Shown here: piece after piece, positions 6,354 to 52,283 of the stretch
How positions within the stretch are numbered: the stretch's first letter is position 1
How the letters are laid out: every line of letters starts with the position of its first letter
The notes under the pieces: generated by a model
The model's input: the letters and a program-made list of their open reading frames with translations, nothing else
The model's database searches: none
What the model was told of the DNA's origin: nothing
Position numbers and translations under genes: made by a program
From: Spirochaetia bacterium
Lineage (GTDB): Bacteria > Spirochaetota > Spirochaetia > CADAEX01
Length of the DNA stretch: 64,000 bases
Assembly: GCA_024402405.1 (NCBI GenBank)
Contig: JAKSTW010000004.1
Coordinates: forward strand, 6,253 to 70,252
Reading direction: 5' to 3'

Positions 6354-6405
6354 ATTTTTATCCTCCATAATGGTTTTATGTTTTTTGCTTTACACTAATA
6401 TGAGT

Positions 6406-6421
6406 TGCAAGAGTCGTGCCA
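6406..6421 (-). promoter_or_regulatory. sigma-54 (-24/-12) promoter, TGGCACG-N4-TTGCA
   Basis: Minus-strand reading TGGCACGACTCTTGCA, about 40-55 nt upstream of the Hsp20 start. Matches the TGGCACG-N4-TTGCW consensus exactly. Confidence 0.5.
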
Positions 6422-6508
6422 ACTTAAGATTATATTTTGTAAATCATTATTACATAATAAAATATTTTATTATGAGCCTTTGCGGTATTTTTTCTGACAG
6501 GCAATGAT

Positions 6509-6569
6509 ATTGTATCAGAATGACACTGTGGTAAAAAAACGATCTACCTGTGTATCATTCTGATACAAT
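6509..6569. promoter_or_regulatory. 15-bp perfect inverted repeat pair; candidate enhancer/UAS or operator
   Basis: ATTGTATCAGAATGA at 6509-6523 and its exact reverse complement at 6555-6569, with a 31-bp spacer. Lies 90-160 bp upstream of the sigma-54-like promoter. Confidence 0.35.
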
Positions 6570-6572
6570 GTA

Positions 6573-8066
6573 TTATTTTGACATACCATAATGGTGCGAT
6601 TCCAGTGCTGGTGCCAGTCTTCCATTTCTGAGGAATGAAATAGCTCCATGCCCACAGCAGATATAAAATTTATCCGCACCTTCTGACATATAACTTTCTG
6701 CAATTTCAGTCAGGTCTTCTCTTTCTTTTTTTGCCAGCTCCCTGTCTACATTCACGGAGGTGAGGAACAGATCTGCCAGCTGGTTGTATCTTGCCCTTTC
6801 CCTGGAGATGCTTTTCATGTTCAGCATACTGTCAGCAGTGAACAGAAGATTGCAGTCTGGTTCCAGCAGGAACAGCTGTCCGTACTGGTGTCCGCCATGG
6901 CTTTTCAGCACATAGAAATCCATGCCGCAGGCTTTCAGACGGCCTACAACAGGGAAGGCTCCTATTTTGTCCAGATCTGCTGGCTCAAAGTCCAGCTGCC
7001 GGTCAGGCGGAAGCCATCTGGAGAATGCGCCTATCATGGTTGTATAAATGTGTTCCAGCCGTGAATCCGCATTGATGGATTTATATGCTCTGTTTCCGCT
7101 TTTTATCAGGTCGATTGTTCCGCGGTATGAGTAAGGAACCATTTTCAGATATCCTGCACCGCCGCAGTGGTCTGAATCCCCATGAGATACAAACAGTTTT
7201 TTCGGTTTATCGTCCTGCCACAGGTCTAAAGAATGGAGCATTTTCATTATGTCATCGTGGTAGATTCCATATCCTGTGTCTATCATGAGAGTCTCATCCG
7301 GTGAGTCCAGCAGGTAGATATTTCCACCGCATGGTGGTTGGAAACAGTGCAGGGTTGTCTGTGGTGTCACCTGCAGTATCTGATGTTCTGCATAGAAATT
7401 TTCTCCGGAAGTTTTCAGCAGAGTCTCTCCGTTCTCATAGATCTTCAGGAAAACATCCTCAGGGTCATATCCCAGCTTTTTCAAACTGAATGCGATCTCA
7501 TTGATTTCTGTCAGAAATGATATGATAAGTCTGTCATCATGCCAGCCGGTGAATTTCCTTAGTTTATTTGCGTAGTTGATATAGAAAATAGTGCTGCCAA
7601 GATCATCATCTGAAGGAGTGTATTCCACAATGCTGAGCCTGAACTTCAGCTTGAGATGATCCAGAAATATTTTTATGTTCTGACTGTTATCAGCATTGAG
7701 CATAAGTGTCATCTGATCTTTCTTATGCTGATCTTTGCCGTCATATTCTATAAATGATATAGTGACATCTGATTTTGCTGCCAGTGAGAGAATTTTTGCA
7801 ACAGGATTTTTTTGTTTTGCAATATTGATTTTCAGCTTTATGAAGATAGGTTCCTGGATCGAGGTCAGCATGAATCCGGATTTTTTCAGTTCTTCCTGAA
7901 GTTCCAGAGAATTATTGTCAATATCGAAGAATACTATGTTATTGTCAATTTTGCTGTTGTATATCACTTTATTGATATTGCATTTATTGTGAGTGAGTAT
8001 GGATGTTATTTTTTTCAGTTTGCTGCTTTTATTTATTCTGGCAACAAAAGAAAAACTTGATGTCAT
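6573..8066 (-). CDS. MBL-fold metallo-hydrolase with a roughly 240-aa N-terminal domain of unknown function
   Basis: 497 aa. C-terminal half carries the SHGDSDHCGG metallo-beta-lactamase motif. N-terminal half has no recognisable motif. Confidence 0.5.
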   Translation of the reverse strand: MTSSFSFVARINKSSKLKKITSILTHNKCNINKVIYNSKIDNNIVFFDIDNNSLELQEELKKSGFMLTSIQEPIFIKLKINIAKQKNPVAKILSLAAKSDVTISFIEYDGKDQHKKDQMTLMLNADNSQNIKIFLDHLKLKFRLSIVEYTPSDDDLGSTIFYINYANKLRKFTGWHDDRLIISFLTEINEIAFSLKKLGYDPEDVFLKIYENGETLLKTSGENFYAEHQILQVTPQTTLHCFQPPCGGNIYLLDSPDETLMIDTGYGIYHDDIMKMLHSLDLWQDDKPKKLFVSHGDSDHCGGAGYLKMVPYSYRGTIDLIKSGNRAYKSINADSRLEHIYTTMIGAFSRWLPPDRQLDFEPADLDKIGAFPVVGRLKACGMDFYVLKSHGGHQYGQLFLLEPDCNLLFTADSMLNMKSISRERARYNQLADLFLTSVNVDRELAKKEREDLTEIAESYMSEGADKFYICCGHGAISFLRNGRLAPALESHHYGMSK

Positions 8067-10471
8067 TTTGTTCTCTCCATTATTTTTTCTGCGATCCTGA
8101 CGGCCTCTACACCGTTGGCAGAATAATATGCTCCCAGAGATTCAGCCCATTCTTTTGTGACTACTGCACCGCCCAGCATGAAAGTAGCCCTGATTCCTGC
8201 ATCTGCCGCTTTTTTCATGACCTCCGGCATTCTTATCATGGTCGTTGTCATAAGTGCAGACAGTGCTATTATATCAGGATCCTCTTTTTTTGCTGCCTCA
8301 ATTATTTTTTCTGCACTTACATCCTTGCCCAGATCAATAACACTAAAATCGTAATTTTTCAGCATCAGAATAACAATATTTTTCCCGATGTCATGTATGT
8401 CTCCCTCAACTGTTGCGAAAAGGATTTTGCCCTTGTTTCCCGAAGCTGCCGTCTCCAGCTTGGGTGCCAGAATGGAAAATGCCGATTTCATGGTTTCTGC
8501 ACTGGCTATAAGCTGCGGGAGGAAATATTCTTTCTTTTCGTACAGATCTCCGACTTTTATTATGGCTGGGATCATGATGCCTGTGAGGATGTCTGAAGGT
8601 TTCAGTCCCTTCTCCAATGTCTGTCTGACAGCCAGCTGAATGTCATCTCTGATTCCGTTGATTATGCCCTGGGAGAGTGCCTCTTCCGGGGATTCTGCTT
8701 TCTGCGGCGTGATTTGCTGTGATGGGGCACTGTTGGCTGATATGGCTATGTATTTTGTCCCATCTTTGTCTTTGCCATTGAGCAGGTCTGATGCATATTT
8801 TGTTCTCATCAGAACTTCTTCCATAGGATTTGCTATGACATGAGAAAGCCCGTTCTGGGAGGCCATTGCCAGAAATGCAGAGTTTATCCATTTCCTTTCA
8901 GGCAGTCCGAAAGAGATGTTTGAAAGTCCCAGTACTGTGCCGAAACCATTGGATGATGCCCATTTTATAGTCTTCAATGCTTCTGCTGCTGCCTCTGGAT
9001 CGGCTGATACGGTCATAGCCAGACCGTCTACCAGAATGTCTTTCTTCCTGAATCCGAATTTCTGTGCCTGTCTGTAGATATCTTCCACTATTGTGATGCG
9101 CTCTTCTGCTGTAGCAGGAATATGATTTCCTCTGATAGGTAAAAGTATGAACATGGCTCCGTATTTTGCAGCTTCCGGAAGAAGTGTTTTCAGCCGTGTC
9201 TCTTCGCCTGATATTGAGTTCAGAAGCGCCCGCCCCGGATAAAGTCTGAGTGCGCTGATCGCCGCTTCCGGATTGGTTGTATCGATTACCAGCGGAAGAT
9301 TGCTCTGAGGTGCCAGAAGTGAGATTATTGTCAGAAGTGTCTTCTTTTCATCTATGCCAGGCATACCTGCGTTCACATCCAGAAGTTCGGCTCCTGCATT
9401 TCTCTGTTCTCTGGCCATATTCTGCACTGTGGTGAAATTGCTGTCACGCAATTCTGCCTGCAATTTTTTCTTGCCTGTCGGGTTGATTCTCTCACCTATG
9501 ATATGCAGAGGGCTGTCACTGTATGTTATGAGTACTTCCCGTGAGCTGGTCAGCGCTAAATGATCCTTTGGAACCGCAGATATAGGACTGCATTCTGCCA
9601 TCTGTACTGCCAGCTGCTTTATATGATCCGGTGATGTTCCGCAGCAGCCGCCCATGAAGTTGACACCGGCCTGGGCGAATTTCTGCGCATAGGTACCGAA
9701 TTCCTGGCTGCCCATCGGAAATTTTGTTTTTCCATCCTCAATGAAAGGAAGCCCTGCATTGGGTTTGGCCACCAGCGGTATTTCGGCCAGAGGTTTCAGT
9801 CGCCTGATAATTTCCAGCATCTCCTTTGGTCCTGCGGAACAGTTGCTTCCGAAAGCATCTGTCCCCAGGCTCTGCAGTGTTATAAGTGCGGCCTCCGGTG
9901 TGGTTCCGTTCAGTGTGCGCCCGTTTGGCTCAAATGTCATTGTGGCTATGATGAATGCAGGACAGAGCTCTCTGATAGCTATGACCTGGGCTCTGGCCTC
10001 CTGGATGTCGATCTGGGTTTCCACCGCGAACATATCAACTCCGCCATCCAGAAGTCCCTGTATCTGACGTTTGAACTGCCGTACTGCCTCATCAAGATCC
10101 AGCTCGCCGAAAGGCTGTATGAATTTGCCGCATGGACCTATATTCCCGGCTAACAGCACAGGATGGTCGGCACTGTCCGCACATTTTCTGGCAACTGATG
10201 CCAGTTTCCTGTTCAGAGCCTCCACATCCTCATAGCCGTATTCCTGCAGTTTGAAAGTATTGCCTCCGAATGTCGGAGTGTAGATCACATCTGCTCCTGC
10301 GTTTATATATGCATTGTGTATGGCTTCCTGAACCTCCGGATGTTCTGCTGTCCACAGTTCCGGGCATGTTCCGGCGGGCATTCCCCGTTTCTGCAGCTCT
10401 GTTCCTGTGGCTCCGTCCAGAATCAGAATTTTTTTCTTCAAAATATCGGCAAGCTGTGTGGCTGTTTTCAT
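8063..10471 (-). CDS. metH: methionine synthase, short form (Hcy S-methyltransferase + pterin-binding + B12-binding domains)
   Basis: 802 aa. Zn site GGCCGT, pterin-binding TIM barrel, B12 motif DxHxxG (EGDIHDIGKNIV). Lacks the C-terminal AdoMet reactivation domain. Confidence 0.88.
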   Translation of the reverse strand: MKTATQLADILKKKILILDGATGTELQKRGMPAGTCPELWTAEHPEVQEAIHNAYINAGADVIYTPTFGGNTFKLQEYGYEDVEALNRKLASVARKCADSADHPVLLAGNIGPCGKFIQPFGELDLDEAVRQFKRQIQGLLDGGVDMFAVETQIDIQEARAQVIAIRELCPAFIIATMTFEPNGRTLNGTTPEAALITLQSLGTDAFGSNCSAGPKEMLEIIRRLKPLAEIPLVAKPNAGLPFIEDGKTKFPMGSQEFGTYAQKFAQAGVNFMGGCCGTSPDHIKQLAVQMAECSPISAVPKDHLALTSSREVLITYSDSPLHIIGERINPTGKKKLQAELRDSNFTTVQNMAREQRNAGAELLDVNAGMPGIDEKKTLLTIISLLAPQSNLPLVIDTTNPEAAISALRLYPGRALLNSISGEETRLKTLLPEAAKYGAMFILLPIRGNHIPATAEERITIVEDIYRQAQKFGFRKKDILVDGLAMTVSADPEAAAEALKTIKWASSNGFGTVLGLSNISFGLPERKWINSAFLAMASQNGLSHVIANPMEEVLMRTKYASDLLNGKDKDGTKYIAISANSAPSQQITPQKAESPEEALSQGIINGIRDDIQLAVRQTLEKGLKPSDILTGIMIPAIIKVGDLYEKKEYFLPQLIASAETMKSAFSILAPKLETAASGNKGKILFATVEGDIHDIGKNIVILMLKNYDFSVIDLGKDVSAEKIIEAAKKEDPDIIALSALMTTTMIRMPEVMKKAADAGIRATFMLGGAVVTKEWAESLGAYYSANGVEAVRIAEKIMERTK

Positions 10472-11189: not shown

Positions 11190-12251
11190 ATGACAGACAG
11201 GATGAAAGCTTGCAGAAAGTTGATGGTGGTTTTCTTTTTCCTGATTTTATGTGTCGCATCTTATTCCCAGGAAAATAAAACATCGGAGAATATGAAGAAA
11301 ATGGCAGAAAAATTAGGCGATGGAATTTATGCTGAGATGAGCACTGACAGGGGAGTGATCCTTCTGGCTCTGGAATATGAGAAAGTTCCTCTGACAGTCA
11401 TGAACTTTACAGGTCTTGCTGAGGGCAAGATCGATGGCGGTCAGGGAATCGGAACGCCTTTCTATGACGGACTGAAGTTCCACAGGGTCATTGATGAGTT
11501 CATGATCCAGGGTGGTGACCCAAGAGGAAATGGTACTGGCGGACCTGGATACAGTTTTCCTGATGAATTTGATGATTCACTGAAACACACCGGACCTGGA
11601 ATCCTTTCCATGGCCAACAGCGGTCCTGATACAAACGGAAGCCAGTTCTTCATCACACATGTGGAGACACCTTGGCTGGACGGACATCATGCAGTTTTCG
11701 GTCATGTGGTTGAGGGACAGGATGTGGTCAATGCCATCCGCCAGGGCGACAAGATCATTTCTGTGAAGATCATCAGAGTGGGTAAAAAGGCGGAGGAATT
11801 CAAGAATGACAACACCACATTCAAGGCAGAGCTGAAGGCTTATGCTGCAAAGGCTAAGGAAAGAGCTGCCGCAAAGCTTGCTGCTGACGAGAAATTCATT
11901 GAGAAGAAATGGCCTAATGCCATCAAGACCGAATCAGGTCTGAGATATATCGTGCAGAAACCTGGAAAAGGAACTGCATCTCCTAAAATGGGACAGCGTG
12001 TAGTGACACACTATCAGGGAAAACTTCTGGACGGACGTATGTTTGACAGCTCATACCAGAGAGGTCAGGCACTGGAGTTCTGTATCGGACAGGTTATTCC
12101 TGGCTGGAATGAGGCTCTTATGACCATGAAGAAAGGAGAGAAGAGAACTCTTATCATTCCTCCTGAACTTGGTTATGGCGAGAGAGGTGCAGGTGGAGTG
12201 ATTCCTCCTAATGCATATCTTGTATTTGAAGTTGAGCTGCTGGATTTCTGA
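11190..12251 (+). CDS. secreted peptidyl-prolyl cis-trans isomerase, cyclophilin-FKBP fusion
   Basis: 353 aa with signal peptide. N-terminal cyclophilin motifs ([31 protein letters not shown]) and a C-terminal FKBP domain ([13 protein letters not shown]...VIPGWNEAL). Confidence 0.8.
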
Positions 12252-12275
12252 ACCAGAGCTTGAATTTATATTTGA

Positions 12276-12303
12276 GGGCATCCTTATGGGATGCCTTTTT
12301 TTA
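12276..12303 (+). terminator. rho-independent terminator after the PPIase gene
   Basis: GGGCATCC-ttat-GGGATGCC hairpin followed by an 8-nt T-run. Confidence 0.55.
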
Positions 12304-12336
12304 TTGTATGTAATTTTTGTTTCACTAAAACAATAT

Positions 12337-12762
12337 ATGTATGGTATTGTGCCTGTTATAGCTACTATATATATGGTTGCTTTCGAAATTTATATTAAAT
12401 ATAATCATAAAGCTATGTGTAAATTCATTGGTATGGAATATTTTGCAGCTATAGCCATGGTTTCATTAAAAATGGAGGAAATTCCTTTAAAAATGTTAAA
12501 TGGGTATGGTATATCTGTAATGAAATCCTTTAAAGAGAATGATATAGAAGCGATAATTTTGTATTCAGAGAAATATATATCTAAATTAGTACGTGATTAT
12601 TCAGATTGTTTTGAATTGTCTAATGATGGAAAGTCTTTGAGAAAAATAGTTGATGATGATGTTCTTATTGAAAAGTTTTGGGCATATTTGTCTACTGATT
12701 TAATTCTTGCAATGATGAATACATTTAATAAGCAGCATAAAGTTATTAATGAAACCATTTAA
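12337..12762 (+). CDS. hypothetical small protein with hydrophobic N-terminus; first gene of the island operon
   Basis: The ORF-track start (12211) overlaps the upstream gene and its terminator. First in-frame ATG after the terminator is 12337 (MYGIVPVIATIYMVAFEIY...). Its 3' end overlaps the next gene by 14 nt, which suggests translational coupling. Confidence 0.35.
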   Translation: MYGIVPVIATIYMVAFEIYIKYNHKAMCKFIGMEYFAAIAMVSLKMEEIPLKMLNGYGISVMKSFKENDIEAIILYSEKYISKLVRDYSDCFELSNDGKSLRKIVDDDVLIEKFWAYLSTDLILAMMNTFNKQHKVINETI

Positions 12763-14488
12763 AATAAAAGATCCATTATATGGTTATATTGAAATAAAAG
12801 ATCCTGAAATTTGTGATATAATTAATTCGAGCCAATTTCACAGATTAAAACAAATAATTCAAACAAGCTATACATCTGTTTATCCATCAGCAACACACAA
12901 TAGGTTTATTCATTCTATTGGAGTTTATTATTTAGGTACTCTTGCTATTGAGTCATTAAAGATAGAATTAGAAAAATTAAATTGTTATAAAGAAGAAGAA
13001 TTAAAATCATATTATCAAATTTTTTTATTAGCCTGTTTGCTTCATGATGTGGGGCATTCTCCTTTTTCACATTCTGGAGAAAAATATTATATAAAAAAGA
13101 GAACAGAAAAGGGGATTCCTTGTATTTGGGAAAAACTTTTGGATGAATTAAAAGATGATGAATTTAATATCGATACAAGGGGAGAAATTCAAGGTGCAGA
13201 ACATGAAATAATGAGTTCCTTGTTAGCTATATCTCATTATCAAGAAATATTAAAAAAATATGATAAATCATTTTTTGTTAGGTGCATTATTGGTTTGAAA
13301 TATTCAAAAAATGATATTCGTAATTGTTTTATAGAACTGTTAAATTCAAATACAATTGATGTTGATAAATTGGATTATTTGCTTAGAGATAGTTTATATA
13401 CTGGATTTGCAACAGTTTCTATTGATTATAAGAGATTATTATCTTCTGTATGTATTATAACAGATAGAAATAATAAACCTAGTTTAGGTTTTACTAAAGC
13501 AGCATTAAGTACCCTTGAAAGTGTAATTTTAGCTCGCGATATGGAAAAGAAATGGATTCAAAATCATCCAGTAATTAAATATGAATCATTTCTTATTGAT
13601 CACATGATTTCAGCAGTAAATAAATATTATTCAGACTTGGGTATTGAAATTTTTAGCCTTGAAGCCCTAACTCCAGATGGAATTGCTTGTACGACAGGAA
13701 AATTTAAGACAAACAAATTGTCTGATACAGATATTGAAGTTATCAAGAAATGTAAACAAAATGAGCCATTAACTGAGACTGAAAAGATTGCTGAAAATAA
13801 TATTTTAAAAGAAATCATTGATGAAGAATGTTCAATTAAACTTTTATCTGATACAGATATAATAACAATTGCTAAAAACTGTATAAAAGACGATGAATGT
13901 GTAAAAGAATATTTTGATAGAAGCATACGAAAAAAAGCTTTATGGAAATCAGAAGCAGAGTATCTATTATACTTTAAATGTGGCATTATGAGTGAAAAAA
14001 CATTAGCTCAACTACAAGAAAAATTGTTTTCTATAGAAAATGAATTTAACACATTACAAAGTCCATTTATTAATAATAATTTGTTAGAGTATTTTAAAAA
14101 GGAATTGGAAAAAAATAATAAGCTTGTTTTTCTTAGGGAAGATGAAAAAAAGAAACGGGCTGACGAAATTAATAAAAAAATTCAATTAATACAATTTTTA
14201 AAAGAATACTCGAGGGATTGTAATGTTGATTTTAATTTTGCAATTATTTCTAGTGGGCAATTTAATACAGGATTTACCGAGATTGAATTTAAAAATATCC
14301 AAATTCGATTTGATGATGAACATATTGAACCACTTGAAAAAGTTGTACAATTGCTTGATTCAGAAAAGAAAAAGAATAAGTTCTTTTATTTATATGTAAA
14401 TTGTGCTGATATAAAAGGTAATAAAATTGACTTGAATAATTTTTTGACTGAGTTAAATGATTTTTGTGTGAGAAATCTGCTAGATTAA
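12749..14488 (+). CDS. SAMHD1/dGTPase-family HD-domain dNTP triphosphohydrolase with a roughly 300-aa C-terminal extension
   Basis: Motifs NRFIHSIGV, LLHDVGHSPFSH and DVDKLDYLLRD match the Dgt/SAMHD1 signature. C-terminal half is K/E-rich with an internal repeat (LSDTDIEVIKKCK / LSDTDIITIAKNCIK). Confidence 0.7.
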   Translation: MKPFKIKDPLYGYIEIKDPEICDIINSSQFHRLKQIIQTSYTSVYPSATHNRFIHSIGVYYLGTLAIESLKIELEKLNCYKEEELKSYYQIFLLACLLHDVGHSPFSHSGEKYYIKKRTEKGIPCIWEKLLDELKDDEFNIDTRGEIQGAEHEIMSSLLAISHYQEILKKYDKSFFVRCIIGLKYSKNDIRNCFIELLNSNTIDVDKLDYLLRDSLYTGFATVSIDYKRLLSSVCIITDRNNKPSLGFTKAALSTLESVILARDMEKKWIQNHPVIKYESFLIDHMISAVNKYYSDLGIEIFSLEALTPDGIACTTGKFKTNKLSDTDIEVIKKCKQNEPLTETEKIAENNILKEIIDEECSIKLLSDTDIITIAKNCIKDDECVKEYFDRSIRKKALWKSEAEYLLYFKCGIMSEKTLAQLQEKLFSIENEFNTLQSPFINNNLLEYFKKELEKNNKLVFLREDEKKKRADEINKKIQLIQFLKEYSRDCNVDFNFAIISSGQFNTGFTEIEFKNIQIRFDDEHIEPLEKVVQLLDSEKKKNKFFYLYVNCADIKGNKIDLNNFLTELNDFCVRNLLD

Positions 14489-14511
14489 ATTGGATTCAAT
14501 AGGGAGAAATT

Positions 14512-15234
14512 ATGCCAGCTGATATGAGACAATTGATAAATTGCCTTTCTGAAATGAAAAAAATATATCTGAATAATCCAACGGAAGCAGTGCGTGGGTC
14601 TAGTTTTATTTATAAATTGCATGAATATTGTGTAATGCAATTATATTCTGCAATAGATAATGCAAAAGATAAAGTGCAAATGATAAGGTTAAAAGATATG
14701 GCACAGCCTAGTGGTAAGCCACATTATCCTAGAACTTTAATTGAGCCTAATAAATATCAGCTTTTGCAGGAAGTAACATTATTTGGATCACATAAGAATA
14801 AGGATGAGGATATAGCTTTAATTCATTATGCAAATGGTCCTCAAATTGCTATTGGAATTAGAAGTCAGATGTCCTCTGTTGGAAAAAATATTGAGAATTA
14901 CTATGAGGGTATTATTGGTGAATGTATTTCACTCCATGATCGGTTTCCAATGGCAACTCTTGGATATGTCTATTTGTTGCCTAAAAATCCAATCAAACCT
15001 GGCCTGGCAGAAGAAATAGATTTAGTTCGAGCAGAAACACTGTTCAAAAAAATAATTGGTAGATTGGATTGGCATTCACCTAATGATAAATATGAACATT
15101 TTGCTTTCTTAAAAGTTGATTTTAAGCAAGATCCTCCTGCAATTATCCCTTCTGACCCAGCACTTAGTATTGAGACTTTTTTTGACCGGCTTATTGCAAC
15201 CCATAATGACAGAAATTTATATAATCAGCTTTGA
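14512..15234 (+). CDS. hypothetical protein (240 aa), third gene of the island operon; possible nuclease or effector
   Basis: Begins 23 nt after the HD gene. No recognisable motif. AT-rich codon usage matches the island. Confidence 0.4.
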   Translation: MPADMRQLINCLSEMKKIYLNNPTEAVRGSSFIYKLHEYCVMQLYSAIDNAKDKVQMIRLKDMAQPSGKPHYPRTLIEPNKYQLLQEVTLFGSHKNKDEDIALIHYANGPQIAIGIRSQMSSVGKNIENYYEGIIGECISLHDRFPMATLGYVYLLPKNPIKPGLAEEIDLVRAETLFKKIIGRLDWHSPNDKYEHFAFLKVDFKQDPPAIIPSDPALSIETFFDRLIATHNDRNLYNQL

Positions 15235-15242
15235 CAGAGTAA

Positions 15243-16853
15243 TTATAATATTTTCCGTCTTCTTTTGGGAATGCGCCAATTCCTTAGATTCTCAATTGAA
15301 TTTCTTATCTTGTCGATATTTTCATCTGATAAACCATATATTTCTTGCAGAACTATTTTATCACCTAATTTATAAGTAGCATCTATCCCATTTTCCAATA
15401 AACATTGATTAAGTTGATTATAAACCTTGGCAATTATATTATTTGGAATATCTTTTAATATTTTAATTTTGTCAATTTCTCCAGGAATTAAAACAAGGGT
15501 ACCTCCACCTAAAGAATGTACTAGTGTTTCAATTTGTAATAATGTTAAACTATTATACCATCTACAAATAATATTTTCTTTTGATATGCTATTATCTGTA
15601 ATAATTCCACTGAGCAGACTATTTGATACTAAAAATTTTGCTGAATTGCTTATGAGCCTGGGGATGTCTCCAAATACAGTTAATATTAAATCTGGTATTT
15701 CGATATTAGGGGTTATATACCATGGTGAACGTGAATTACATTTATATCCCTTATTAATTTCCATTTTTTCACCCTCTTTAATATATTGTTTCGTTCCTTC
15801 AGTCAGTAGCCTTGGATAAAAAAGAAAACTTTGGGGAATTATATTGGCGTTATCTACACCAATATGTGGATAAGAATTTATTTCCTTTGAATTTAATATG
15901 CTTGGAAGTAAATTTTGCGAAGAAATTTTATATTCTTGAATGGTTGTTATTGTAGGATGAAAATATTTTTTATTTCCACATACATAACCAATTTTAAATT
16001 TACATTCATTTTTTAATAAGTGGATTTCTTGATTGTTCTCTAAGCCTTGTATTAAATTTTGTGTATCTTCTGATAAGATTTTCTGTTCGAAAGGTTTTTC
16101 CATTTTTAATATCTCTGTTATTTTAATTGAAGCACTAATCATAGAAATATTATTGAACAAATCGCTGATATTGTTATAAATATTATAGTTAACAGAATTG
16201 CATTTTGCTCCTTTCTTATCTGCAAGAAATATTATTGTTTCTACATCAACTTCTGGAAAAAAATCATCATATAGCCGACAGATTGTTAATGATCCAAAAT
16301 TAACAGACAAATATTGCCAAAGGGGGAATGCATATCTTACATATGTCATTTCATAAGGCAAAACAAAGCCAAGTTTGCCATTTGTAGCTAACATCTCGCT
16401 TGCATGAACTACAAAAGGCATCCACAGGCTACCATTGCATGGGATATGGAGTTTATATTTTTTCATTATATTAAATATTTTTTTTTGATTATCATTGGTA
16501 AGATTTTTTAAACTTATGTATGGGGGATTTCCTATTATTGCATTTGGTTTTTTTTCTGGCCAGAAATCCAGATAATCAGAAAGGATGCCATGAATAATAT
16601 TATTTTTTGCCAAATATGAATTATATGGCTCAGATTGTAATTCAATACCTAATATTTGAGGGGAGGTGTTTCCAAAATTATTATAATATTTTATGGAGGC
16701 ATTAAGAAAACTACCGTCGCCAAATGATGGTTCTAATAATAATTCATTGCCAGTTTTTATTGCCCATCTTGCAATGTAATCAGCAATAGAAGAACATGTA
16801 TAAAAAGAGCCAGTTGCTTTTTTTGTTGATAGATTATTTTTTTTCATGCTCAT
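15243..16853 (-). CDS. N6-adenine DNA methyltransferase, gamma class (Type II/IIG-like) with C-terminal target-recognition region
   Basis: 536 aa. Motif X GSFYTC, motif I LEPSFGDGSFL, motif IV NPPY (IIGNPPYIS). Confidence 0.75.
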   Translation of the reverse strand: MSMKKNNLSTKKATGSFYTCSSIADYIARWAIKTGNELLLEPSFGDGSFLNASIKYYNNFGNTSPQILGIELQSEPYNSYLAKNNIIHGILSDYLDFWPEKKPNAIIGNPPYISLKNLTNDNQKKIFNIMKKYKLHIPCNGSLWMPFVVHASEMLATNGKLGFVLPYEMTYVRYAFPLWQYLSVNFGSLTICRLYDDFFPEVDVETIIFLADKKGAKCNSVNYNIYNNISDLFNNISMISASIKITEILKMEKPFEQKILSEDTQNLIQGLENNQEIHLLKNECKFKIGYVCGNKKYFHPTITTIQEYKISSQNLLPSILNSKEINSYPHIGVDNANIIPQSFLFYPRLLTEGTKQYIKEGEKMEINKGYKCNSRSPWYITPNIEIPDLILTVFGDIPRLISNSAKFLVSNSLLSGIITDNSISKENIICRWYNSLTLLQIETLVHSLGGGTLVLIPGEIDKIKILKDIPNNIIAKVYNQLNQCLLENGIDATYKLGDKIVLQEIYGLSDENIDKIRNSIENLRNWRIPKRRRKIL

Positions 16854-17178
16854 TATCTCGCTTTATATTGGTAGAAATAAAGACCTCTAAGAGTAATTTT
16901 ATAGTTTCCCTTTGCTCACCAGATAGATCATCGCAATTAATAATTATTCCATTAGCCTTTAAATATGAAGTTTTTATATCTGATAATCCAAGCAGATAAT
17001 CTGATGAAATATTAAAGTATTTGCAGATTAAAATTAAAATTTCTTGATTGGGAAATCGACTGTCAGATTCATATTGGGATATTGTTGCACAAGAAATTCC
17101 CAATATTTTGCCTAAATCAGTTTGCGACAGATTTGCTGTTTTCCTTAGAATTTTTAATCTTTCACCAAATATTTTCAT
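16834..17178 (-). CDS. XRE-family HTH transcriptional regulator (possible R-M controller)
   Basis: 114 aa. HTH QTDLGKILGISCATISQYESDSRFPN. Overlaps the methyltransferase start by 20 nt, so they are co-transcribed. Confidence 0.65.
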   Translation of the reverse strand: MKIFGERLKILRKTANLSQTDLGKILGISCATISQYESDSRFPNQEILILICKYFNISSDYLLGLSDIKTSYLKANGIIINCDDLSGEQRETIKLLLEVFISTNIKRDNEHEKK

Positions 17179-23828: not shown

Positions 23829-24785
23829 CTATGAATTTCTTCCTGTTTTCCAGTGCCAGACTATTCTGCCTGTGCCGCCTGGGAAAGGGGAGAGTTTGTT
23901 GAAATCCGGGTTCCATTCTTCTGTGATCTCGTCTTCCTGTATGAACCCGTCCTCGATTCCATATTCATCCAGGTAAGAATAGACCATGTCCATTTCTGAC
24001 CTGTCCAGGATCCGCTGTGGGAAATCATCATATTCAGGAGATGCCGCTTTTGGTGAATACTGGAACATCACGGAAAGCAGTGCCTTGTCTTTCAGATTCT
24101 CGCTGTACCATTTCAGTACGCGTTCTGTCATTTCAAGGTACCCGGGAATCACCAGATGCCGTATTATGGTGCCGCTGATGATCTTGTCGTCTTTGAATAC
24201 AAGCGGCTTGGACTCTGCCATCTTGATGACTGACTCTTTTGCTCTTTCCGGGTAATCAGACGCATTGAAGAATACAGCTGCGAAATGATGGTTCAGTGTC
24301 TTCAGATCCGGGAGATATACATCAGTGAATGTGTTTACGATGTCCAGCATCTCCGCAGTCTCATATCCTGATGAATTCCACAGTACCGGTATTTTCAGTC
24401 CTTTTTCCCTGGCTTCAGCTATTCCTAAAGCTATGGACGGAATGAACTGAGTTCCGGTGACCAGATTTATATTCTCTGCCCCTGCATTCTGGAGATCCAT
24501 ACAGATGCCGGCAAACTCGGAGACAGACACCTCTTTCCCTATTCCTCCGCGGCTTATCTGATGGTTCTGACAGAACTTGCACTGCAGTGTGCATCCTGTG
24601 AAAAATATAGTGCCTGAGCCATTTTTGCCTGTGATCGGCGGTTCCTCACCTTTGTGCAGAAGTGCGCAGGCAATGCGTATCTGGTCGGATTCACGGCAGA
24701 ATCCGCAGGCTGAAGTCCTGTCTGTGCCGCAGCCACGTCCGCACAGATGGCATTTTCTGTATATGTCCAGTATATTGTCATTCAT
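23829..24785 (-). CDS. radical SAM enzyme (PflX/AmmeMemoRadiSam-type activase-like)
   Basis: CTLQCKFC (Cx3Cx2C) radical SAM motif. N-terminal Cys-rich CHLCGRGCG...CGFC. ORF-track N-terminus (to 24899) overlaps tRNA-Leu, so start reset to the ATG at 24785 (MNDNILDIY...). Confidence 0.65.
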   Translation of the reverse strand: MNDNILDIYRKCHLCGRGCGTDRTSACGFCRESDQIRIACALLHKGEEPPITGKNGSGTIFFTGCTLQCKFCQNHQISRGGIGKEVSVSEFAGICMDLQNAGAENINLVTGTQFIPSIALGIAEAREKGLKIPVLWNSSGYETAEMLDIVNTFTDVYLPDLKTLNHHFAAVFFNASDYPERAKESVIKMAESKPLVFKDDKIISGTIIRHLVIPGYLEMTERVLKWYSENLKDKALLSVMFQYSPKAASPEYDDFPQRILDRSEMDMVYSYLDEYGIEDGFIQEDEITEEWNPDFNKLSPFPGGTGRIVWHWKTGRNS

Positions 24786-24843
24786 ATTGAAGGTATTATT
24801 GATTGACAAAAAATTAAAGTCAATGTACTTTGATAACATACAT

Positions 24844-24928
24844 GCCGGTGTGGCGAAATTGGTAGACGCAGCAGACTCAAAATCTGCCGGTGGCAACACT
24901 GTATCGGTTCGAGTCCGATCACCGGTAA
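24844..24928 (+). tRNA. tRNA-Leu (anticodon CAA)
   Basis: Long variable arm, anticodon loop cTCAAaa, GGTTCGAGTCC T-arm. Confidence 0.85.
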
Positions 24929-32338: not shown

Positions 32339-33322
32339 ATGGAGATCATGGATAAAAAAACAGAAGAACGGATCAGACAGGCAGATCTCATTACGGAAAA
32401 GGAATTTCATAAGAAAGTGTTTATCCGGGGAATAATAGAATTCTCCAATTATTGCCGCAAGAACTGCAGATACTGCGGAATCAGACGTGAAAATGCCGGG
32501 GTAAGCCGTTACCGTATGAGTCCGGATGAGATCGTGTCTGTGGCTGAAATGAATCTGCAGAAGGGTATAAAGACCATTGTGCTCCAGAGCGGCGAAGATC
32601 TTTCTTATACCAGGGAAGTGATGTCAGATATCATAAGAAGGATCAAGGCGCTGGATCCTGACTGTGCCATAACCCTGTCCATCGGAGAACGGAGCTGGGA
32701 GGATTATGCTGCTTTCAAGGAAGCTGGTGCTGACAGATTTCTCATGCGGTTTGAGACCAGTGACAGAGCACTTTTCAGACAGCTGCATCCTGACGATGAT
32801 TTTGATGTGCGAATGAGGGCATTGCAGGATCTGAGAGAACTTGGATATGAGGTGGGATCCGGATTCATGATCGGAATTCCTGGAGAAACTGCTGATGCTG
32901 ATGACCGCAATATAGATATGCTGGAGAAGATAGATGTTCATATGATAGGGGCCGGTCCTTTTCTTCCTGCTGCCGGTACTCCTATGGAGAATGAGAGGAT
33001 TTCTGCTGATCTGGAGCGGTGTCTGGATGTATATGCCAGAATCAGAATCCGGTTTCCGAAGGCTAATATGGCGGCTGCCACTGCCCTGGATGCACTGGAC
33101 AAAGGTGGGAGAAAACTTTCTCTCGCAGCAGGTGCAAATGTTGTGATGCCCAATACCACACCGCTGAAATACCGTGACAGTTATTCTATTTATGAGCGCA
33201 AAGGAAAACTGGATGACCACATGGCGGATGCTGAATACCTGGGGGTAGAGCTTGAACGGCTGGGATATGTCCCTATGTGGAATGAGCGAGGAGATTCACT
33301 GCTGGTAAAAAACAATGGATAA
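32339..33322 (+). CDS. hydE: [FeFe]-hydrogenase maturase HydE (radical SAM)
   Basis: CRKNCRYC radical SAM motif in the biotin-synthase-like fold. Strong overall resemblance to HydE (IIEFSNYCRKNCRYCGIRREN...GIKTIVLQSGED). Confidence 0.75.
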   Translation: MEIMDKKTEERIRQADLITEKEFHKKVFIRGIIEFSNYCRKNCRYCGIRRENAGVSRYRMSPDEIVSVAEMNLQKGIKTIVLQSGEDLSYTREVMSDIIRRIKALDPDCAITLSIGERSWEDYAAFKEAGADRFLMRFETSDRALFRQLHPDDDFDVRMRALQDLRELGYEVGSGFMIGIPGETADADDRNIDMLEKIDVHMIGAGPFLPAAGTPMENERISADLERCLDVYARIRIRFPKANMAAATALDALDKGGRKLSLAAGANVVMPNTTPLKYRDSYSIYERKGKLDDHMADAEYLGVELERLGYVPMWNERGDSLLVKNNG

Positions 33323-47657: not shown

Positions 47658-48959
47658 CTATTCCTTATGAAAATTTCTGGCCGGAGGCATTCTTTTCTCA
47701 AGTTCTGCCATCTGACCAGCGACTTTTTTGATCTCGTCCCTTAGAATAAAGATACAGTCTGTTTTATGTGCTTTTCCGGTTACAATATCCTCTGCCAGTG
47801 AATGACAGTTAGGTGCCCCGCAGGAACCGCAGTCCAATCCCGGAAGCATGGAATCTATTTTCTCGATCTCATCCATCATCTGCAATGCCTCAGAAACATC
47901 CTCGCTGAGCTTGAGGATCGGACGTGAGTAGATCTCTTTTGTCCAGGAGATATCAAAACCAGGATTCAGATTGATATCTTCCTCATTATTTTTCAGTGGC
48001 ACCGAAGCAACCAGTCTTTTTACTCTGGATCTGGCTATGTAAGGATTCTCTACCGTGAGAGTACCACCCACACATCCTCCTGGACATGCCATGGCTTCTA
48101 TGAAATCTATATGATGGAAATCCTCATTTTCAATCTGCTCCAGCACTTTTATCACATGCTCTATGCCATCTACTGCTATGCTCTTTGGAGATCTGACAGC
48201 TTCACTCTCGCCGTCACTGTGGGCCCAGCGTATTCCGGTACCGGATGCTTTGGAAAGCTTTTCAGGCTTGTCGATTGTTTTGATCAGCCTGTGCATTGCC
48301 GGAAAAATATCTTTCTGTGCTATTACCCCATCAACTGCTGACTGCTCATTTCCCAGAGGAGATCTGACACTGGTGATCTTTGCAGGACATGGAGATATGA
48401 AAAACACACCTATATTCTTCTTATCCGGATAAAGTTGTTTTTTTACTATTCTGGCGGCGATTTCCATCGGAGTCTGAAGCTTTATGACGTGTTCAATAAG
48501 GCTTGGAAATCTTACCTGGATAAGTCTGACTACTGCAGGACATGAAGATGATATAAGAGGCCGAGGATAATTTCCCTTTTTTATAAGATCTGCTGTAGCC
48601 TGAGATGCTATCTCTGCCGCACTGGCAACTTCATATACATCATCAAAGCCGAGCTTTTTCAATGCTGTCAGGATCACGTCTGTCGGTGTGTTCTTGAATT
48701 GACCATATAGACTTGGAGCTGGAATTGCCACTTTGAAATCATAATTTCTGATTATGTCCAGTGGATCACTGACTGCTTTTTTTGCATGGGAAGGGCATTT
48801 TCTGATACATTCACCGCAGTCGATGCAACGTTCTGTAATGATCATGGCCTTTGCATCTCTTACTCTTATAGCCTCAGTAGGACATTTTGAAATGCAGTTT
48901 GTGCATCCTTTGCATAGTGTTTTATCCAAGGTAACAGAGTGAAAGTATTCTCTTGCCAT
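47658..48959 (-). CDS. [FeFe]-hydrogenase-like protein, non-canonical (putative sensory/regulatory class), with N-terminal 2[4Fe-4S] and C-terminal RnfB-like Cys motif
   Basis: CKGCTNCISKCP and CIDCGECIRKCP ferredoxin motifs. H-cluster-like motifs SSSCPAV (L1), SPCPAK (L2) and EAMACPGGCVGG (L3). C-terminal DCGSCGAPNCHSLAEDIV. Confidence 0.7.
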   Translation of the reverse strand: MAREYFHSVTLDKTLCKGCTNCISKCPTEAIRVRDAKAMIITERCIDCGECIRKCPSHAKKAVSDPLDIIRNYDFKVAIPAPSLYGQFKNTPTDVILTALKKLGFDDVYEVASAAEIASQATADLIKKGNYPRPLISSSCPAVVRLIQVRFPSLIEHVIKLQTPMEIAARIVKKQLYPDKKNIGVFFISPCPAKITSVRSPLGNEQSAVDGVIAQKDIFPAMHRLIKTIDKPEKLSKASGTGIRWAHSDGESEAVRSPKSIAVDGIEHVIKVLEQIENEDFHHIDFIEAMACPGGCVGGTLTVENPYIARSRVKRLVASVPLKNNEEDINLNPGFDISWTKEIYSRPILKLSEDVSEALQMMDEIEKIDSMLPGLDCGSCGAPNCHSLAEDIVTGKAHKTDCIFILRDEIKKVAGQMAELEKRMPPARNFHKE

Positions 48960-48963
48960 TATA

Positions 48964-49377
48964 TCATCCTAATTTTTCTATGATTTTTACTGTGGTTCCT
49001 TTTCCCGGAACAGAATTTATTTCCATCTCGTCTGAATTGCGTTTTATGTTTGGAAGTCCCATTCCCGCTCCGAATCCCATTTCTCTGATGGCATCAGTGG
49101 CTGTTGAATATCCTTCCTGCATGGCAAGTCCTATGTCTGCTATGCCGGGACCGTGATCGACCAGTATACATATTATGTTTTCTGGAGTGATGTCGATAGT
49201 TATATTACCGCCGCCGCCATGGATTACCATGTTGATCTCAGCCTCATATAATGCTATGACTGTTTTTTTTATTATAGAGTTGTCGACCCCAATCTGCTGG
49301 AGCTTTTTCTTTAATGTGCTGGAGGCGATGCCAGCCAGATCCATGTCATTTCCAGGTATGGAAAAATTCAACTGCAT
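48964..49377 (-). CDS. GHKL-family ATPase / RsbW-SpoIIAB-like anti-sigma-factor serine kinase
   Basis: 137 aa. N-box EAEINMVIHG, G1 DHGPGI, G2 GFGAGMGL. 4 nt from both neighbours. Confidence 0.7.
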   Translation of the reverse strand: MQLNFSIPGNDMDLAGIASSTLKKKLQQIGVDNSIIKKTVIALYEAEINMVIHGGGGNITIDITPENIICILVDHGPGIADIGLAMQEGYSTATDAIREMGFGAGMGLPNIKRNSDEMEINSVPGKGTTVKIIEKLG

Positions 49378-49381: not shown

Positions 49382-50566
49382 TCACCATCTAAAATTCATA
49401 ACTGGCGGATATGCTTTCTTTACAGATAAGAACAGAAAAAATCCGCCTGCGGCCCCAACTGCGTTCTGCAGTATATTCATCGGAATTTCTGAAATTGCGG
49501 CTCCTGGTCCCACGATGAAATATCCTGTAAAAAAATATCCTGCTACCATTATAACAGCTCCTGCAAAGAAAACAAGAAATTTTGATAAAAATAGTGAAAT
49601 TTTATTCATGTTCCTGTTGAAGATATTGAATGTGAACCCGATTGCAAATCCCTGCAGTCCATGTATCAGCAGTGAGAATAATGCCCACTGGGAATATCCG
49701 CTGAGTATGTCTGCGATTGCTGTCCCTAATCCTCCTGCTATAAAACCGGCGGCAGGACCGAATGTGATGGCTGAGAAAAATATTGCCATATCACCGAAAT
49801 TCAGGTATCCCCTTGTGGGTCCTATTGGAATTCGTATGAGTATGGTCATGACCACGACTATTGCTGTGAGTATGGCAGAAGCTGCGATTCTGAACGAAAA
49901 GGTCTTCATTGCTGCATTGCCTGTTTTTCTTCCGGTCTGATTTCTGATGCCTCGTGTCTCCAGTGCCATTGCCAGAGTCGGAATATTTTTTATTGCCTGT
50001 ATCAGTACTGAGGCCAGGATCGGAAGGGTGCTTCTGAACCTGCCGATGAAATTCCATCTGCCTGGATCAGCGCAGCCCTCTGTCTTTCTCATTTTATGTG
50101 CATTTTCTGTATTTCTGTATATCCTGATAAGGTAGGGAATATATCTGGATGCAATCGATATTGTAAGTGCAAATTTGAACGGTAGGCCGAAAAAACGTAA
50201 TGTCTGGATGAAGACATCCTGCGATGTTGTTCTGAAATAAAGATAAAAGAGGGCAGTGATCCCGAAAAACCGTATTATGATCCTTGATGTCTCATACAGA
50301 CCTGTCTGTGTCAGCCATATGAAATTACCGGTCTGTATTACCGGTGTTCCGCTGCGGAAAAAAAGCGGGGTAAGGACAGCTGTCAGAATCACCAGTGGAA
50401 GTATTGCTCTGAATATCTTCAGGAAATCTTTCCAGCCGCATATGCTGATGCCTGCCGGTAACAGAGGCAGAAACAGCAGCAGATAGTGAAGCGGGGAAAA
50501 AAAAAAAAAAAAAAGAACAGAGTACAATATGAGAAAAATAAATTTAAGTCTCGGATCTGTTCTCAA
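49382..50566 (-). CDS. ECF transporter transmembrane protein: EcfT(CbiQ)-like N-terminal part fused in-frame to an S-component-like C-terminal part
   Basis: N-terminal about 225 aa has EcfT features (ASRYIP..., ALETRGI). C-terminal about 170 aa is a 5-6-TM S-component-like module (MKTFSFRIAASAILTAIVVV...). Apparent TTG start. Contains an 18-nt T-run at 50497-50514. Confidence 0.55.
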   Translation of the reverse strand: MRTDPRLKFIFLILYSVLFFFFFSPLHYLLLFLPLLPAGISICGWKDFLKIFRAILPLVILTAVLTPLFFRSGTPVIQTGNFIWLTQTGLYETSRIIIRFFGITALFYLYFRTTSQDVFIQTLRFFGLPFKFALTISIASRYIPYLIRIYRNTENAHKMRKTEGCADPGRWNFIGRFRSTLPILASVLIQAIKNIPTLAMALETRGIRNQTGRKTGNAAMKTFSFRIAASAILTAIVVVMTILIRIPIGPTRGYLNFGDMAIFFSAITFGPAAGFIAGGLGTAIADILSGYSQWALFSLLIHGLQGFAIGFTFNIFNRNMNKISLFLSKFLVFFAGAVIMVAGYFFTGYFIVGPGAAISEIPMNILQNAVGAAGGFFLFLSVKKAYPPVMNFRW

Positions 50567-52047
50567 AGGATCTCTCCTGGCAGAAAAGAATAATTTAATA
50601 TATTTTCCAGTTTGTCACCCGGTTCCTCAAATTTACCGTTGTTCATGAAATATATGGAATCTGCATTGGATACAGCCAGTTTGAAGTCATGTGTTATTAT
50701 CATGATGGCCGGATCTTTGTCGGAATTTCTGAACTGCCTGATGATGTTTGTGTATTCTGTAAAGGAAATCCCTGAATCTGCCTCATCTATGATTATTATA
50801 TCTTTGTTCAGCAAGTAATAGATCGCTGCCTGCAGTTTCTTCTTCTGACCATAACTCATAAGTACCGGTGATGCGGTCACAGATTCTATGCCGAAAATTT
50901 TTACAGCATCGGATATCTGTTCCGGATCAGTGCTTTTATTTCTGAGCTTCAGGCCATATTCCAGTTCCTCCTGTACAGTGGGAAGAAAAAGCTGGTAATC
51001 CGGATTCTGGAAGAGATATGATACATTTCTGTTCAGTTTGCCCGGATCTGTTTCTTTTCCCATAAAGCTTATTTTGCCTGCTGATGGGATCAGAAGTCCT
51101 GCTATGAGTTTTGATAATGTGGATTTTCCGCATCCGTTGGTACCTATTACCGCAGTAGTTTTTCCTCTGTGCAGAGAAAAATCCTCTATTTCAATGCTGA
51201 ATTTGGAATCTGGATAGGCGAATTTTATATTCTGAAGTCTGATGACAGGATCGCATTCCGGTTTCTTCAGGAATTTATCTCGCAATACCGATATCTCAGG
51301 CATGTGAAGATTTATGAACAGTCCAAGTTCCGATGCTCTTTCATATAGTTTATTGTCAGCCGGCTGAAAATGTTCTATGGTGCCGTGGCTGAATATAAAA
51401 AAATCAGAGGCAAATTCCCTATATATATCCAGCATTTTAGATGTCAGTATAAGAACAGTTTTTCCTGAGCTTTTAAGTGTCTCCAGAATTTCTTTTCTGG
51501 CATAAATATCTATTTCTTCCAGTGTCTCATCCAGTATCCACAGCTGAGGATCCACTGCATGCAATACGGCCAGCATAAGTCGGCGTTTCTGTCCGCCTGA
51601 AAGGCTGCTTGGAACCTGTTCCCTGAGTTCTTCTATATGCATCTTCGATAATGCATTCTGTACTTTCGTGCTGATTTCTTCTGGCGGGAGTTCCATATTC
51701 TCCAGCGGAAAACTGATTTCTTTTTCTGCAGTAGAGCATATTATCTGTTCATCCGGATTCTGAAATACGATTCCGACTTTGTTCAGCATATCTGAGCTGT
51801 GTAATTCTGTGAGTTCTGCATCATCCAGTCTGATGCTGCCTGAGAGTGTGCCTCCGGTATATGACGGAACCAGGGATGTTATTATTCTGGATAATGTTGT
51901 TTTACCGCTTCCGGGAGGAGCCAGAAAAACAGACACAGTGCCTTTCTGCAGGGAAAAAGAGAGAGAATCAAACAGTAACGGGCTTTCCAGTCCCTGATAA
52001 GATGGATATCTGAATGACAGATTATTTACTGAAAAATATACCGGCAT
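50563..52047 (-). CDS. ECF/CbiO-type ABC ATPase, duplicated (A-A' fusion)
   Basis: Two ABC domains. Walker A APPGSGKTT and GTNGCGKST. Signatures LSGGQKRRL and MSYGQKKKL. Stop overlaps the next gene's start. Confidence 0.75.
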   Translation of the reverse strand: MPVYFSVNNLSFRYPSYQGLESPLLFDSLSFSLQKGTVSVFLAPPGSGKTTLSRIITSLVPSYTGGTLSGSIRLDDAELTELHSSDMLNKVGIVFQNPDEQIICSTAEKEISFPLENMELPPEEISTKVQNALSKMHIEELREQVPSSLSGGQKRRLMLAVLHAVDPQLWILDETLEEIDIYARKEILETLKSSGKTVLILTSKMLDIYREFASDFFIFSHGTIEHFQPADNKLYERASELGLFINLHMPEISVLRDKFLKKPECDPVIRLQNIKFAYPDSKFSIEIEDFSLHRGKTTAVIGTNGCGKSTLSKLIAGLLIPSAGKISFMGKETDPGKLNRNVSYLFQNPDYQLFLPTVQEELEYGLKLRNKSTDPEQISDAVKIFGIESVTASPVLMSYGQKKKLQAAIYYLLNKDIIIIDEADSGISFTEYTNIIRQFRNSDKDPAIMIITHDFKLAVSNADSIYFMNNGKFEEPGDKLENILNYSFLPGEIL

Positions 52048-52109: not shown

Positions 52110-52283
52110 TCAGTCAGCAAGAATAGCATCTGCTGGGCATGCGTCCTTGCAAGTACCGCAAGAAATGCATTTTGCAGCGTCAATTGCTCTCTTTCCGTCT
52201 TTTTCGCTGATAGCTTCGTTTGGACATTCACCCTCACAAGCACCGCAGTTCAGACATTCATCTGCCTTAATTGAATAAGCCAT
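52110..52283 (-). CDS. 2[4Fe-4S] clostridial-type ferredoxin (57 aa; not in ORF track)
   Basis: Hand translation MAYSIKADECLNCGACEGECPNEAISEKDGKRAIDAAKCISCGTCKDACPADAILAD. Two Cx2Cx2Cx3CP motifs. GAGGAG RBS 7 nt upstream. Confidence 0.8.
   Translation of the reverse strand: MAYSIKADECLNCGACEGECPNEAISEKDGKRAIDAAKCISCGTCKDACPADAILAD

Follow-up and report, generated by a model that had tools for sequence, protein, structure and literature searches.

A predicted group D [FeFe] hydrogenase of the TamHydS type and its adjoining SpoIIAB-like kinase gene in a spirochaete

Group D [FeFe] hydrogenases (also termed M2e) are the least understood class among the putative H2 sensors. To our knowledge, the class lacks a solved structure, a demonstrated signalling partner and an established physiological role. 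The class is defined by an H-domain, a C-terminal Cx2Cx4Cx16C motif, the absence of a PAS domain, the loss of the proton-relay Cys299 and a Ser or Thr in place of Met353 (numbering of the hydrogenase CpI; PMC8163306). Here, a hydS-like gene of this kind is described together with the kinase gene directly upstream of it; both lie in a stretch of 64,000 nucleotides (the window) from a Spirochaetia bacterium (assembly GCA_024402405.1, contig JAKSTW010000004.1, positions 6,253 to 70,252 of the forward strand).

TamHydS from Thermoanaerobacter mathranii (WP_013150113 / WP_418365830) binds [2Fe]adt and carries a spectroscopically normal H-cluster (PMC8163306). Its H2 evolution is about 1000-fold lower than that of group A enzymes, its affinity for H2 is high and its Hred state is stabilised (PMC8163306; PMC11803613), and H2 induces a change in its secondary structure (PMC13104023). 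A proton path through E252, E289, S249 and D265, which matters according to mutagenesis, is exclusive to group D (PMC10407848), and charged residues surround the accessory clusters (R30, R32, K35, K58, D378, E392, D393 and D403; PMC13104023). The TamHydS gene lies upstream of a bifurcating hydrogenase and beside a histidine-kinase-like ATPase (PMC8163306), and H2 sensing is the working hypothesis for the class (PMC8163306; PMC13104023). Acetivibrio thermocellus, but no spirochaete, is represented in a published compilation of 70 group D enzymes.

Assignment to group D

The open reading frame (ORF) in question encodes 433 amino acids (aa), with the following features:

47658–48959, minus strand: hydS-like gene, predicted group D (M2e) [FeFe] hydrogenase of 433 aa (ORF, Pfam, identity to TamHydS, tree, AF2 model)
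48780–48935, minus strand: N-terminal F-domain with two [4Fe-4S] motifs (C16, C19, C22, C26; C45, C48, C51, C55), Fer4 families
48879–48914, minus strand: first CxxCxxCxxxCP motif, CKGCTNCISKCP, aa 16–27
48792–48827, minus strand: second CxxCxxCxxxCP motif, CIDCGECIRKCP, aa 45–56
48063–48731, minus strand: H-domain with Cys ligands C140, C191, C292 and C296, plus K194, Fe_hyd_lg_C
48537–48551, minus strand: L1, SSSCP, aa 137–141
48369–48395, minus strand: L2, SPCPAKITS, aa 189–197
48051–48098, minus strand: L3, EAMACPGGCVGGTLTV, aa 288–303
47748–47846, minus strand: C-terminal Cx2Cx4Cx16C [4Fe-4S] domain (C377, C380, C385, C402), PF04060
47754–47834, minus strand: DCGSCGAPNC-x16-C, aa 376–402

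An earlier note on this DNA, made by reading the letters, had pointed out a hydrogenase-like protein with altered H-cluster motifs, and the ORF and all the motifs it quoted are present as stated there. The two N-terminal CxxCxxCxxxCP motifs that it listed fall within a match to Fer4 dicluster families (aa 9–60, E 4e-9; Pfam). Fe_hyd_lg_C covers aa 77–299 (E 4.5e-39), and PF04060, 'Putative Fe-S cluster', covers aa 372–404 (E 5.3e-12; 45.7 bits, cutoff 23); the C-terminus runs 31 aa past the last Cys. PF04060 is the N-terminal domain of RnfB/CdhE, and the Cys spacing found here is the one published for groups C and D (PMC8163306). The RnfB/CdhE type that the note had assigned to the C-terminal Cys motif is borne out by this match and by the alignment of aa 367–400 with residues 40–73 of RnfB chain 9eri_B. 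The protein as a whole was rejected as an RnfB, since TIGR01944 reaches 61.8 bits, under its cutoff of 68.7, and PF04060 membership holds at the level of the domain only. No PAS, HisKA or MCP domain was found in the protein with Pfam (E ≤ 0.01), and the NCBIfam models for group A and B1 hydrogenases match it only below threshold (TIGR02512, 100 bits against a cutoff of 406). The motif set is far beyond chance.

The numbering of the hydrogenase CpI was transferred to the window protein via TamHydS. All four ligands of the H-cluster have counterparts (C300, C355, C499 and C503 correspond to C140, C191, C292 and C296), and K358 and M497 are kept as K194 and M290, whereas C299, M353 and E361 are altered to S139, S189 and S197. 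This mapping agrees with the earlier reading of L1, in which Ser replaces the proton-relay Cys beside a retained ligand, and of L2, in which Met and Glu have both become Ser. S139, S189 and M290 are thus the second-sphere residues around the H-cluster. The group A pathway C299-E279-S319-E282-R286 corresponds to S139, A121, I159, D124 and K128, and the equivalents of the group D proton path are E251, E288, S248 and D264. The charged residues described around the TamHydS accessory clusters are present as well, as basic residues near the N-terminal clusters (R32, R34, K37, K60) and as an acidic flank of the C-terminal cluster (D376, E390, D391, D401), and they are conserved across the group D alignment.

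Over their full length the window protein and TamHydS share 51% identity (E 8e-164). The TamHydS sequence used (435 aa) was rebuilt from a coding sequence in the supplement of PMC13104023 that had been damaged by optical character recognition, with one residue near position 343 unread; at 17 positions for which the papers give residue numbers, the rebuilt sequence has the expected amino acid. A neighbour-joining tree of 410 columns recovers the window protein, TamHydS and the rest of group D as one clade in each of 100 bootstraps, and group C as one clade in 93. The outgroups were five group A HydA proteins from fetched loci and 16 group C proteins, the latter gathered by a search with an MCP-fused hydrogenase that adjoins a group D gene in one clostridial locus (L058, see below); groups B and E–G lie outside this sample. 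Within the tree set, the identity of the window protein to group D sequences is never below 51%, and to those of groups A and C never above 24%. Phylogenetic placement had been named beforehand as a test, and among the groups sampled (A, C and D) it puts the protein outside catalytic group A and with TamHydS.

Conservation within the class points the same way. The H-cluster cysteines C140, C191, C292 and C296 are invariant both in 212 distinct group D sequences and in an alignment of 117, the eight F-domain cysteines are invariant in the 117, and K194 and the L1/L2 prolines do not vary across the group D alignments. The proton-path residues are 86–100% conserved in the 212 sequences (E251 in 210, E288 in all 212). 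At the CpI 299 position these sequences have Ala (147) or Ser (65) and at the 353 position Thr (108) or Ser (104), so that the substitutions, which the note had called systematic, are systematic throughout: 299 is never Cys and 353 is always Ser or Thr. Judged by its sequence, then, the window protein is, like TamHydS, a group D (M2e) [FeFe] hydrogenase, with the H-cluster cysteines, the two Fer4 clusters, Cx2Cx4Cx16C, no output domain, S139 and S189, the proton path and the position in the tree all found as in group D. The combination of motifs defines a published and very large class, and the odd motifs are therefore the family signature of group D and no peculiarity of this protein. More than 8000 clusters at 90% identity match it at E ≤ 1e-10, and all 120 clusters among the matches listed have the same Pfam architecture and about 420–470 aa. 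At least 595 relatives were confirmed in species-representative genomes. A member of the identical cluster is deposited as MCQ2603753.1, a '4Fe-4S binding protein' from a Spirochaetia metagenome-assembled genome (MAG), and the homologue from A. thermocellus is 56% identical to the window protein.

A model of the protein made with AlphaFold2 (AF2) from the 117-sequence alignment has a mean predicted local distance difference test score (pLDDT) of 91.1 and a predicted template modelling score of 0.88, the sole weak segment being a loop at about residues 321–330; it supersedes an earlier run on a 17-sequence alignment (pLDDT 68), in which the domains at both termini were unreliable. The published TamHydS model is alike in this respect (pLDDT 94.2, weak loop 323–334). 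In a Foldseek search of the Protein Data Bank (PDB), the only matches to the AF2 model are group A/B [FeFe] hydrogenases (DdH, CbA5H, CpI and HydABC HydA; TM-score 0.63–0.67, root-mean-square deviation 3.3–3.9 Å, identity 21–22%), and the PDB copy searched holds no group C or D structure. The C-terminal RnfB-type [4Fe-4S] domain would pack against the N-terminal domain.

Two active-site positions, whose residues would flank the adt amine, divide the class. In the 212 group D sequences, a sample in which relatives of the query are over-represented, the C299 and M497 positions covary: Ser at the first goes with Met at the second in 64 of 65 cases, and Ala goes with Leu, Asn or Gln in 147 of 147 and never with Met. 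On this sequence criterion the window protein belongs to the Ser299/Met497 subtype, and TamHydS is Ala/Leu. In a neighbour-joining tree built without the two columns and carrying no support values, the Ser/Met sequences fall into two clades, with 57 and 5 members, and singletons. Repeated convergent covariation is not claimed, given that this topology is unsupported and that Met at the 497 position may be ancestral. When TamHydS is engineered in the direction of group A, the combined exchange A137C + L291M + S191M abolishes catalysis, and A137C alone retains 10–25% of the activity (PMC11803613). That the engineered variants are weakened or dead suggests that the natural Ser/Met pair may tune the site differently. 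It is a tentative idea, and an unlikely one on balance, that Ser/Met proteins form a functionally distinct subtype of group D, which could comprise near-pure sensors that tune the H-cluster in another way and act on a target other than a bifurcating hydrogenase.

The adjoining kinase gene and its neighbourhood

The hydS gene ends a run of genes on the minus strand, and the gene directly upstream of it, absent from the earlier note, encodes a kinase-like ATPase. Upstream of hydS the run reads:

48964–49377, minus strand: SpoIIAB/RsbW-like HATPase of the Ser kinase/anti-sigma type, 137 aa (HATPase_c_2, E 9e-9)
49382–50566, minus strand: energy-coupling factor (ECF) T component fused to an S component, 394 aa (CbiQ, aa 2–207; ECF-ribofla_trS, aa 226–384)
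50563–52047, minus strand: ECF double ATPase, EcfA-EcfA' (two ABC_tran domains, TIGR04520/04521)

Read at the junction, the kinase stop codon stands 4 nucleotides ahead of the hydS ATG. The stop codon of the ECF T/S gene stands likewise 4 nucleotides ahead of the kinase ATG, the double ATPase gene overlaps the T/S gene by 4 nucleotides, and the T/S gene is probably in the same transcript as kinase-hydS. A convergent RNase III gene lies downstream of hydS. The pairing of kinase and hydrogenase is nearly universal: in 79 of 81 loci (80 genomes and the window) an orthologue of about 143 aa lies directly upstream of hydS on the same strand. Across 80 orthologues, the N-box (YExExNxVIH), G1 (DxGPGI) and G2 (GFGAGMGLPN) are at least 90% conserved.

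The kinase resembles SpoIIAB and RsbW in its size of about 140 aa, its single HATPase_c_2 domain and its N, G1 and G2 boxes, and the closest solved structure is the anti-sigma F factor SpoIIAB (E 8e-4). It differs from SpoIIAB in that its best NCBIfam match, TIGR01925 spIIAB (E 1e-13), reaches 51.2 bits, the cutoff being 135, and in that no STAS antagonist or sigma factor gene lies nearby; none was found among the window ORFs scanned. Thus, as far as its sequence tells, the kinase is like SpoIIAB in fold and ATP boxes and yet is not a member of that family.

The wider neighbourhood varies between lineages. Most Firmicute loci have the order DRTGG – kinase – HydS – DRTGG – PHP – HydC – histidine-kinase-like ATPase – [2Fe-2S] protein – HydB (– HydA), which agrees with the published placement of the TamHydS gene. 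Two paralogous DRTGG-domain proteins stand in these genomes one on either side of kinase-hydS (for instance in L005 and L006, at about 5170–10055), and a second HATPase of 188 aa is encoded between hydC and the [2Fe-2S] protein gene. The DRTGG and PHP proteins and the 188-aa HATPase are candidate signalling components that the cited group D papers do not discuss. In the window, a search with hidden Markov models found no DRTGG, PHP, HydC, HydB or 188-aa histidine-kinase-like ATPase and no other hydrogenase, the small ferredoxin described below being all that was found. The order ECF – kinase – HydS is instead kept in the four closest spirochaete loci (L001–L004, 66–79% identity); the ECF T and S components, which form one ORF in the window, are separate genes in L002–L004, and the S component belongs to the riboflavin-transporter-like family PF07155. 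All 13 Ser/Met loci among the 81 have the kinase, and they mostly have no DRTGG, PHP or HydABC neighbours (DRTGG in 3 of 13 loci, against 66 of 68 of the Ala type); in the closest spirochaete relatives the Ser/Met subtype stands behind the ECF transporter. Found mainly in spirochaetes and in a minimal kinase-HydS context, this subtype offers a simpler system in which signalling could be studied; it is also the natural parallel of the active-site variants engineered in TamHydS.

At the head of the same-strand run is a gene for a 57-aa clostridial-type 2x[4Fe-4S] ferredoxin (52110–52283, minus strand; FdxA_fam, 73.6 bits, cutoff 65). Ahead of it lies the region's best promoter-like site (52341–52314, 11 of 12 matches), and a terminator-like hairpin follows it (52088–52065). 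With these sites of its own and its absence from L001–L004, the ferredoxin gene was rejected as a part of the kinase-hydS module. In the Clostridia MAG locus L058, a group D hydS (6001–7278, plus strand) is directly followed by a group C2 hydrogenase-MCP fusion (7401–9314, plus strand; Fer4-H-FeS-MCPsignal), which places putative H2 sensors of two groups in tandem.

Sensing, catalysis and H-cluster maturation

The reading that we favour, and hold to be fairly probable, is that the window protein is an H2 (or H2/ferredoxin redox) sensor of the TamHydS type that acts on the adjoining kinase. By analogy with TamHydS, the one group D member for which an H-cluster and slow H2 turnover are known, the H-domain would bind a normal H-cluster through C140, C191, C292 and C296. 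With the group A proton relay gone, protons would move from E251 over E288 and S248 to D264, a route that would slow H2 turnover and stabilise reduced states of the H-cluster; by homology with TamHydS, the protein should turn H2 over at about a thousandth of the group A rate and bind H2 with high affinity. H2 would reduce the H-cluster together with an N-terminal cluster, the reduced protein would change conformation, and this change would modulate the co-translated SpoIIAB-like kinase, which would pass the signal on by phosphorylation or by binding a partner. In the spirochaete, unlike in most Firmicutes, the putative regulated target is not a neighbouring HydABC.

Support for the sensing hypothesis comes from the kinase gene directly upstream in 79 of the 81 loci. 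Furthermore, in group C proteins the same Fer4-H-FeS core is fused to MCP, HisKA/HATPase or PAS-sigma54 outputs, that is, this core has repeatedly been wired to signalling, and deletion of the group C gene hfsB alters adhE expression and the product profile (PMC5707799). The SpoIIAB-like kinase, near-invariant and translationally coupled to the hydrogenase, is the obvious candidate for the missing signal output, and published work touches on it in passing.

Several observations weigh against a sensor. We know of no in vivo evidence that a group D enzyme senses H2 and of no demonstration that a group D HydS interacts with the kinase. No STAS, DRTGG, PHP, sigma factor or HydABC gene lies in the window as a candidate for the substrate or target of the kinase, and neither HydF nor HydG was found in its 64 kb. 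TamHydS is moreover a competent, if slow, reversible catalyst (PMC11803613), and H2 fails to reduce its C-terminal cluster, which can be disrupted with barely any effect on activity (PMC13104023); redox-relay signalling via that cluster is therefore unlikely. The earlier note had read the motifs as evidence for sensing or electron relay rather than catalysis. Its sensing part matches the hypothesis of the field and gains from the conserved kinase, its exclusion of catalysis was too strong in view of TamHydS, and an electron-relay role for the C-terminal motif is doubtful given how the TamHydS cluster behaves.

The catalytic competence of TamHydS leaves room for a slow metabolic hydrogenase that exchanges electrons with ferredoxin via its N-terminal clusters at a low H2 flux, with the kinase either regulating it or unrelated to it. 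TamHydS works in both directions (H2 evolution 0.25 U/mg, oxidation 2–22 U/mg; PMC11803613), an N-terminal 2x[4Fe-4S] domain is the usual electron path of catalytic enzymes (PMC8163306), and a ferredoxin gene (52110–52283) heads the same-strand run. We nevertheless think this unlikely: the rates are about 1000-fold under those of group A, the near-obligate pairing with a HATPase (79 of 81) and the sister relation to the output-fused group C point to signalling, and the ferredoxin gene has promoter- and terminator-like sites of its own and is absent from L001–L004.

The protein might also sense the redox state of the ferredoxin pool, the H-cluster merely equilibrating the Fe-S chain with H2/H+, or sense O2 or redox through its C-terminal cluster. 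The three accessory clusters lie in distinct electrostatic environments, the C-terminal cluster of TamHydS, whose potential is more negative, shows no response to H2 (PMC13104023), and PF04060 domains are found in redox complexes such as RnfB. Strict conservation of a complete H-cluster site and of the proton path (E251, E288) is difficult to account for if H2 chemistry plays no part, however, and H2 does induce a structural change in TamHydS (PMC13104023), so that redox sensing of this sort appears quite improbable. A hydrogenase-like Fe-S protein lacking the [2Fe] subcluster, as in eukaryotic Nar1/NARFL, is hardly credible and was rejected: the missing HydF and HydG and several second-sphere residues unlike those of group A speak for it, but all the H-cluster ligands, K194 and the L1/L2 prolines are invariant, TamHydS at 51% identity assembles a normal H-cluster (PMC8163306), and a HydE is encoded 14 kb away:

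32339–33322, plus strand: hydE, H-cluster radical SAM maturase (TIGR03956 rSAM_HydE, 315.9 bits against a cutoff of 254.6, E 3.4e-94)

The presence of HydE makes H-cluster maturation in this organism plausible. The gene stands alone, 14 kb from hydS, flanked by a glycoside hydrolase gene and an amidohydrolase gene. A second radical SAM gene (23829–24899) was rejected as a maturase, as it gives only a weak NrdG-like match. Elsewhere in the window, a low-GC island spans about 12000–17000 (GC 0.29, against about 0.44 for the rest). Three of its ORFs have no Pfam match (12211–12762, 12749–14488 and 14512–15234), and an Eco57I-like type II N6 DNA methyltransferase gene (15243–16853, minus strand) adjoins them; the whole is probably a restriction-modification or defence island that was acquired.

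Comparison with known hydrogenases

TamHydS is the closest described relative. With 435 aa against 433 it has an identical architecture, and neither protein has a PAS domain; both have lost C299, have Ser for M353, and share the S-E-D-E proton path, the charged residues at the N- and C-terminal clusters and an adjoining gene for a histidine-kinase-like ATPase (PMC8163306). They differ at the active site, where the C299 position is Ala137 in TamHydS and Ser139 here, the M497 position is Leu291 and Met290, and L2 reads SPCAAK and SPCPAK, respectively. The hosts differ (a Firmicute and a spirochaete), as does the genomic context: ECF – kinase – hydS in the window comes without DRTGG, PHP, an AraC regulator or a downstream bifurcating HydABC.

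Group C proteins (TmHydS, R. albus HydS, HfsB; M2f; HydDB C1–C3) have the Fer4x2 – H-domain – PF04060 core in common with the window protein, have also lost the C299 proton relay, have a putative sensory role and form the sister clade in the tree. In contrast to the window protein, they carry fused PAS, HisKA/HATPase, MCP or sigma54 AAA+ outputs, and they lack the E252/S249/D265 path of group D (PMC10407848). The group D kinase is a protein of its own, of the SpoIIAB type and encoded upstream. Without a fused signalling domain, at 21–23% identity to the 16 group C proteins and in a separate clade, the window protein was rejected as a member of group C; the distinction from PAS-containing HydS proteins drawn in the earlier note therefore stands, the Pfam search having found no PAS.

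With group A (CpI, DdH, CrHydA1 and the HydA of HydABC) the window protein shares the H-domain fold, the four cluster cysteines, K358, the N-terminal 2x[4Fe-4S] relay and Met497, at 19–24% identity. It differs in having Ser at all of C299, M353 and E361, an extra C-terminal Fe-S domain and no small-subunit-like C-terminus. Group A was rejected, since the motifs and the proton pathway are not those of that group, only M497 being kept, and TIGR02512 stays below its cutoff. The locus adds no new kind of system to those described; its hydrogenase is an ordinary representative of a class already known and abundant.

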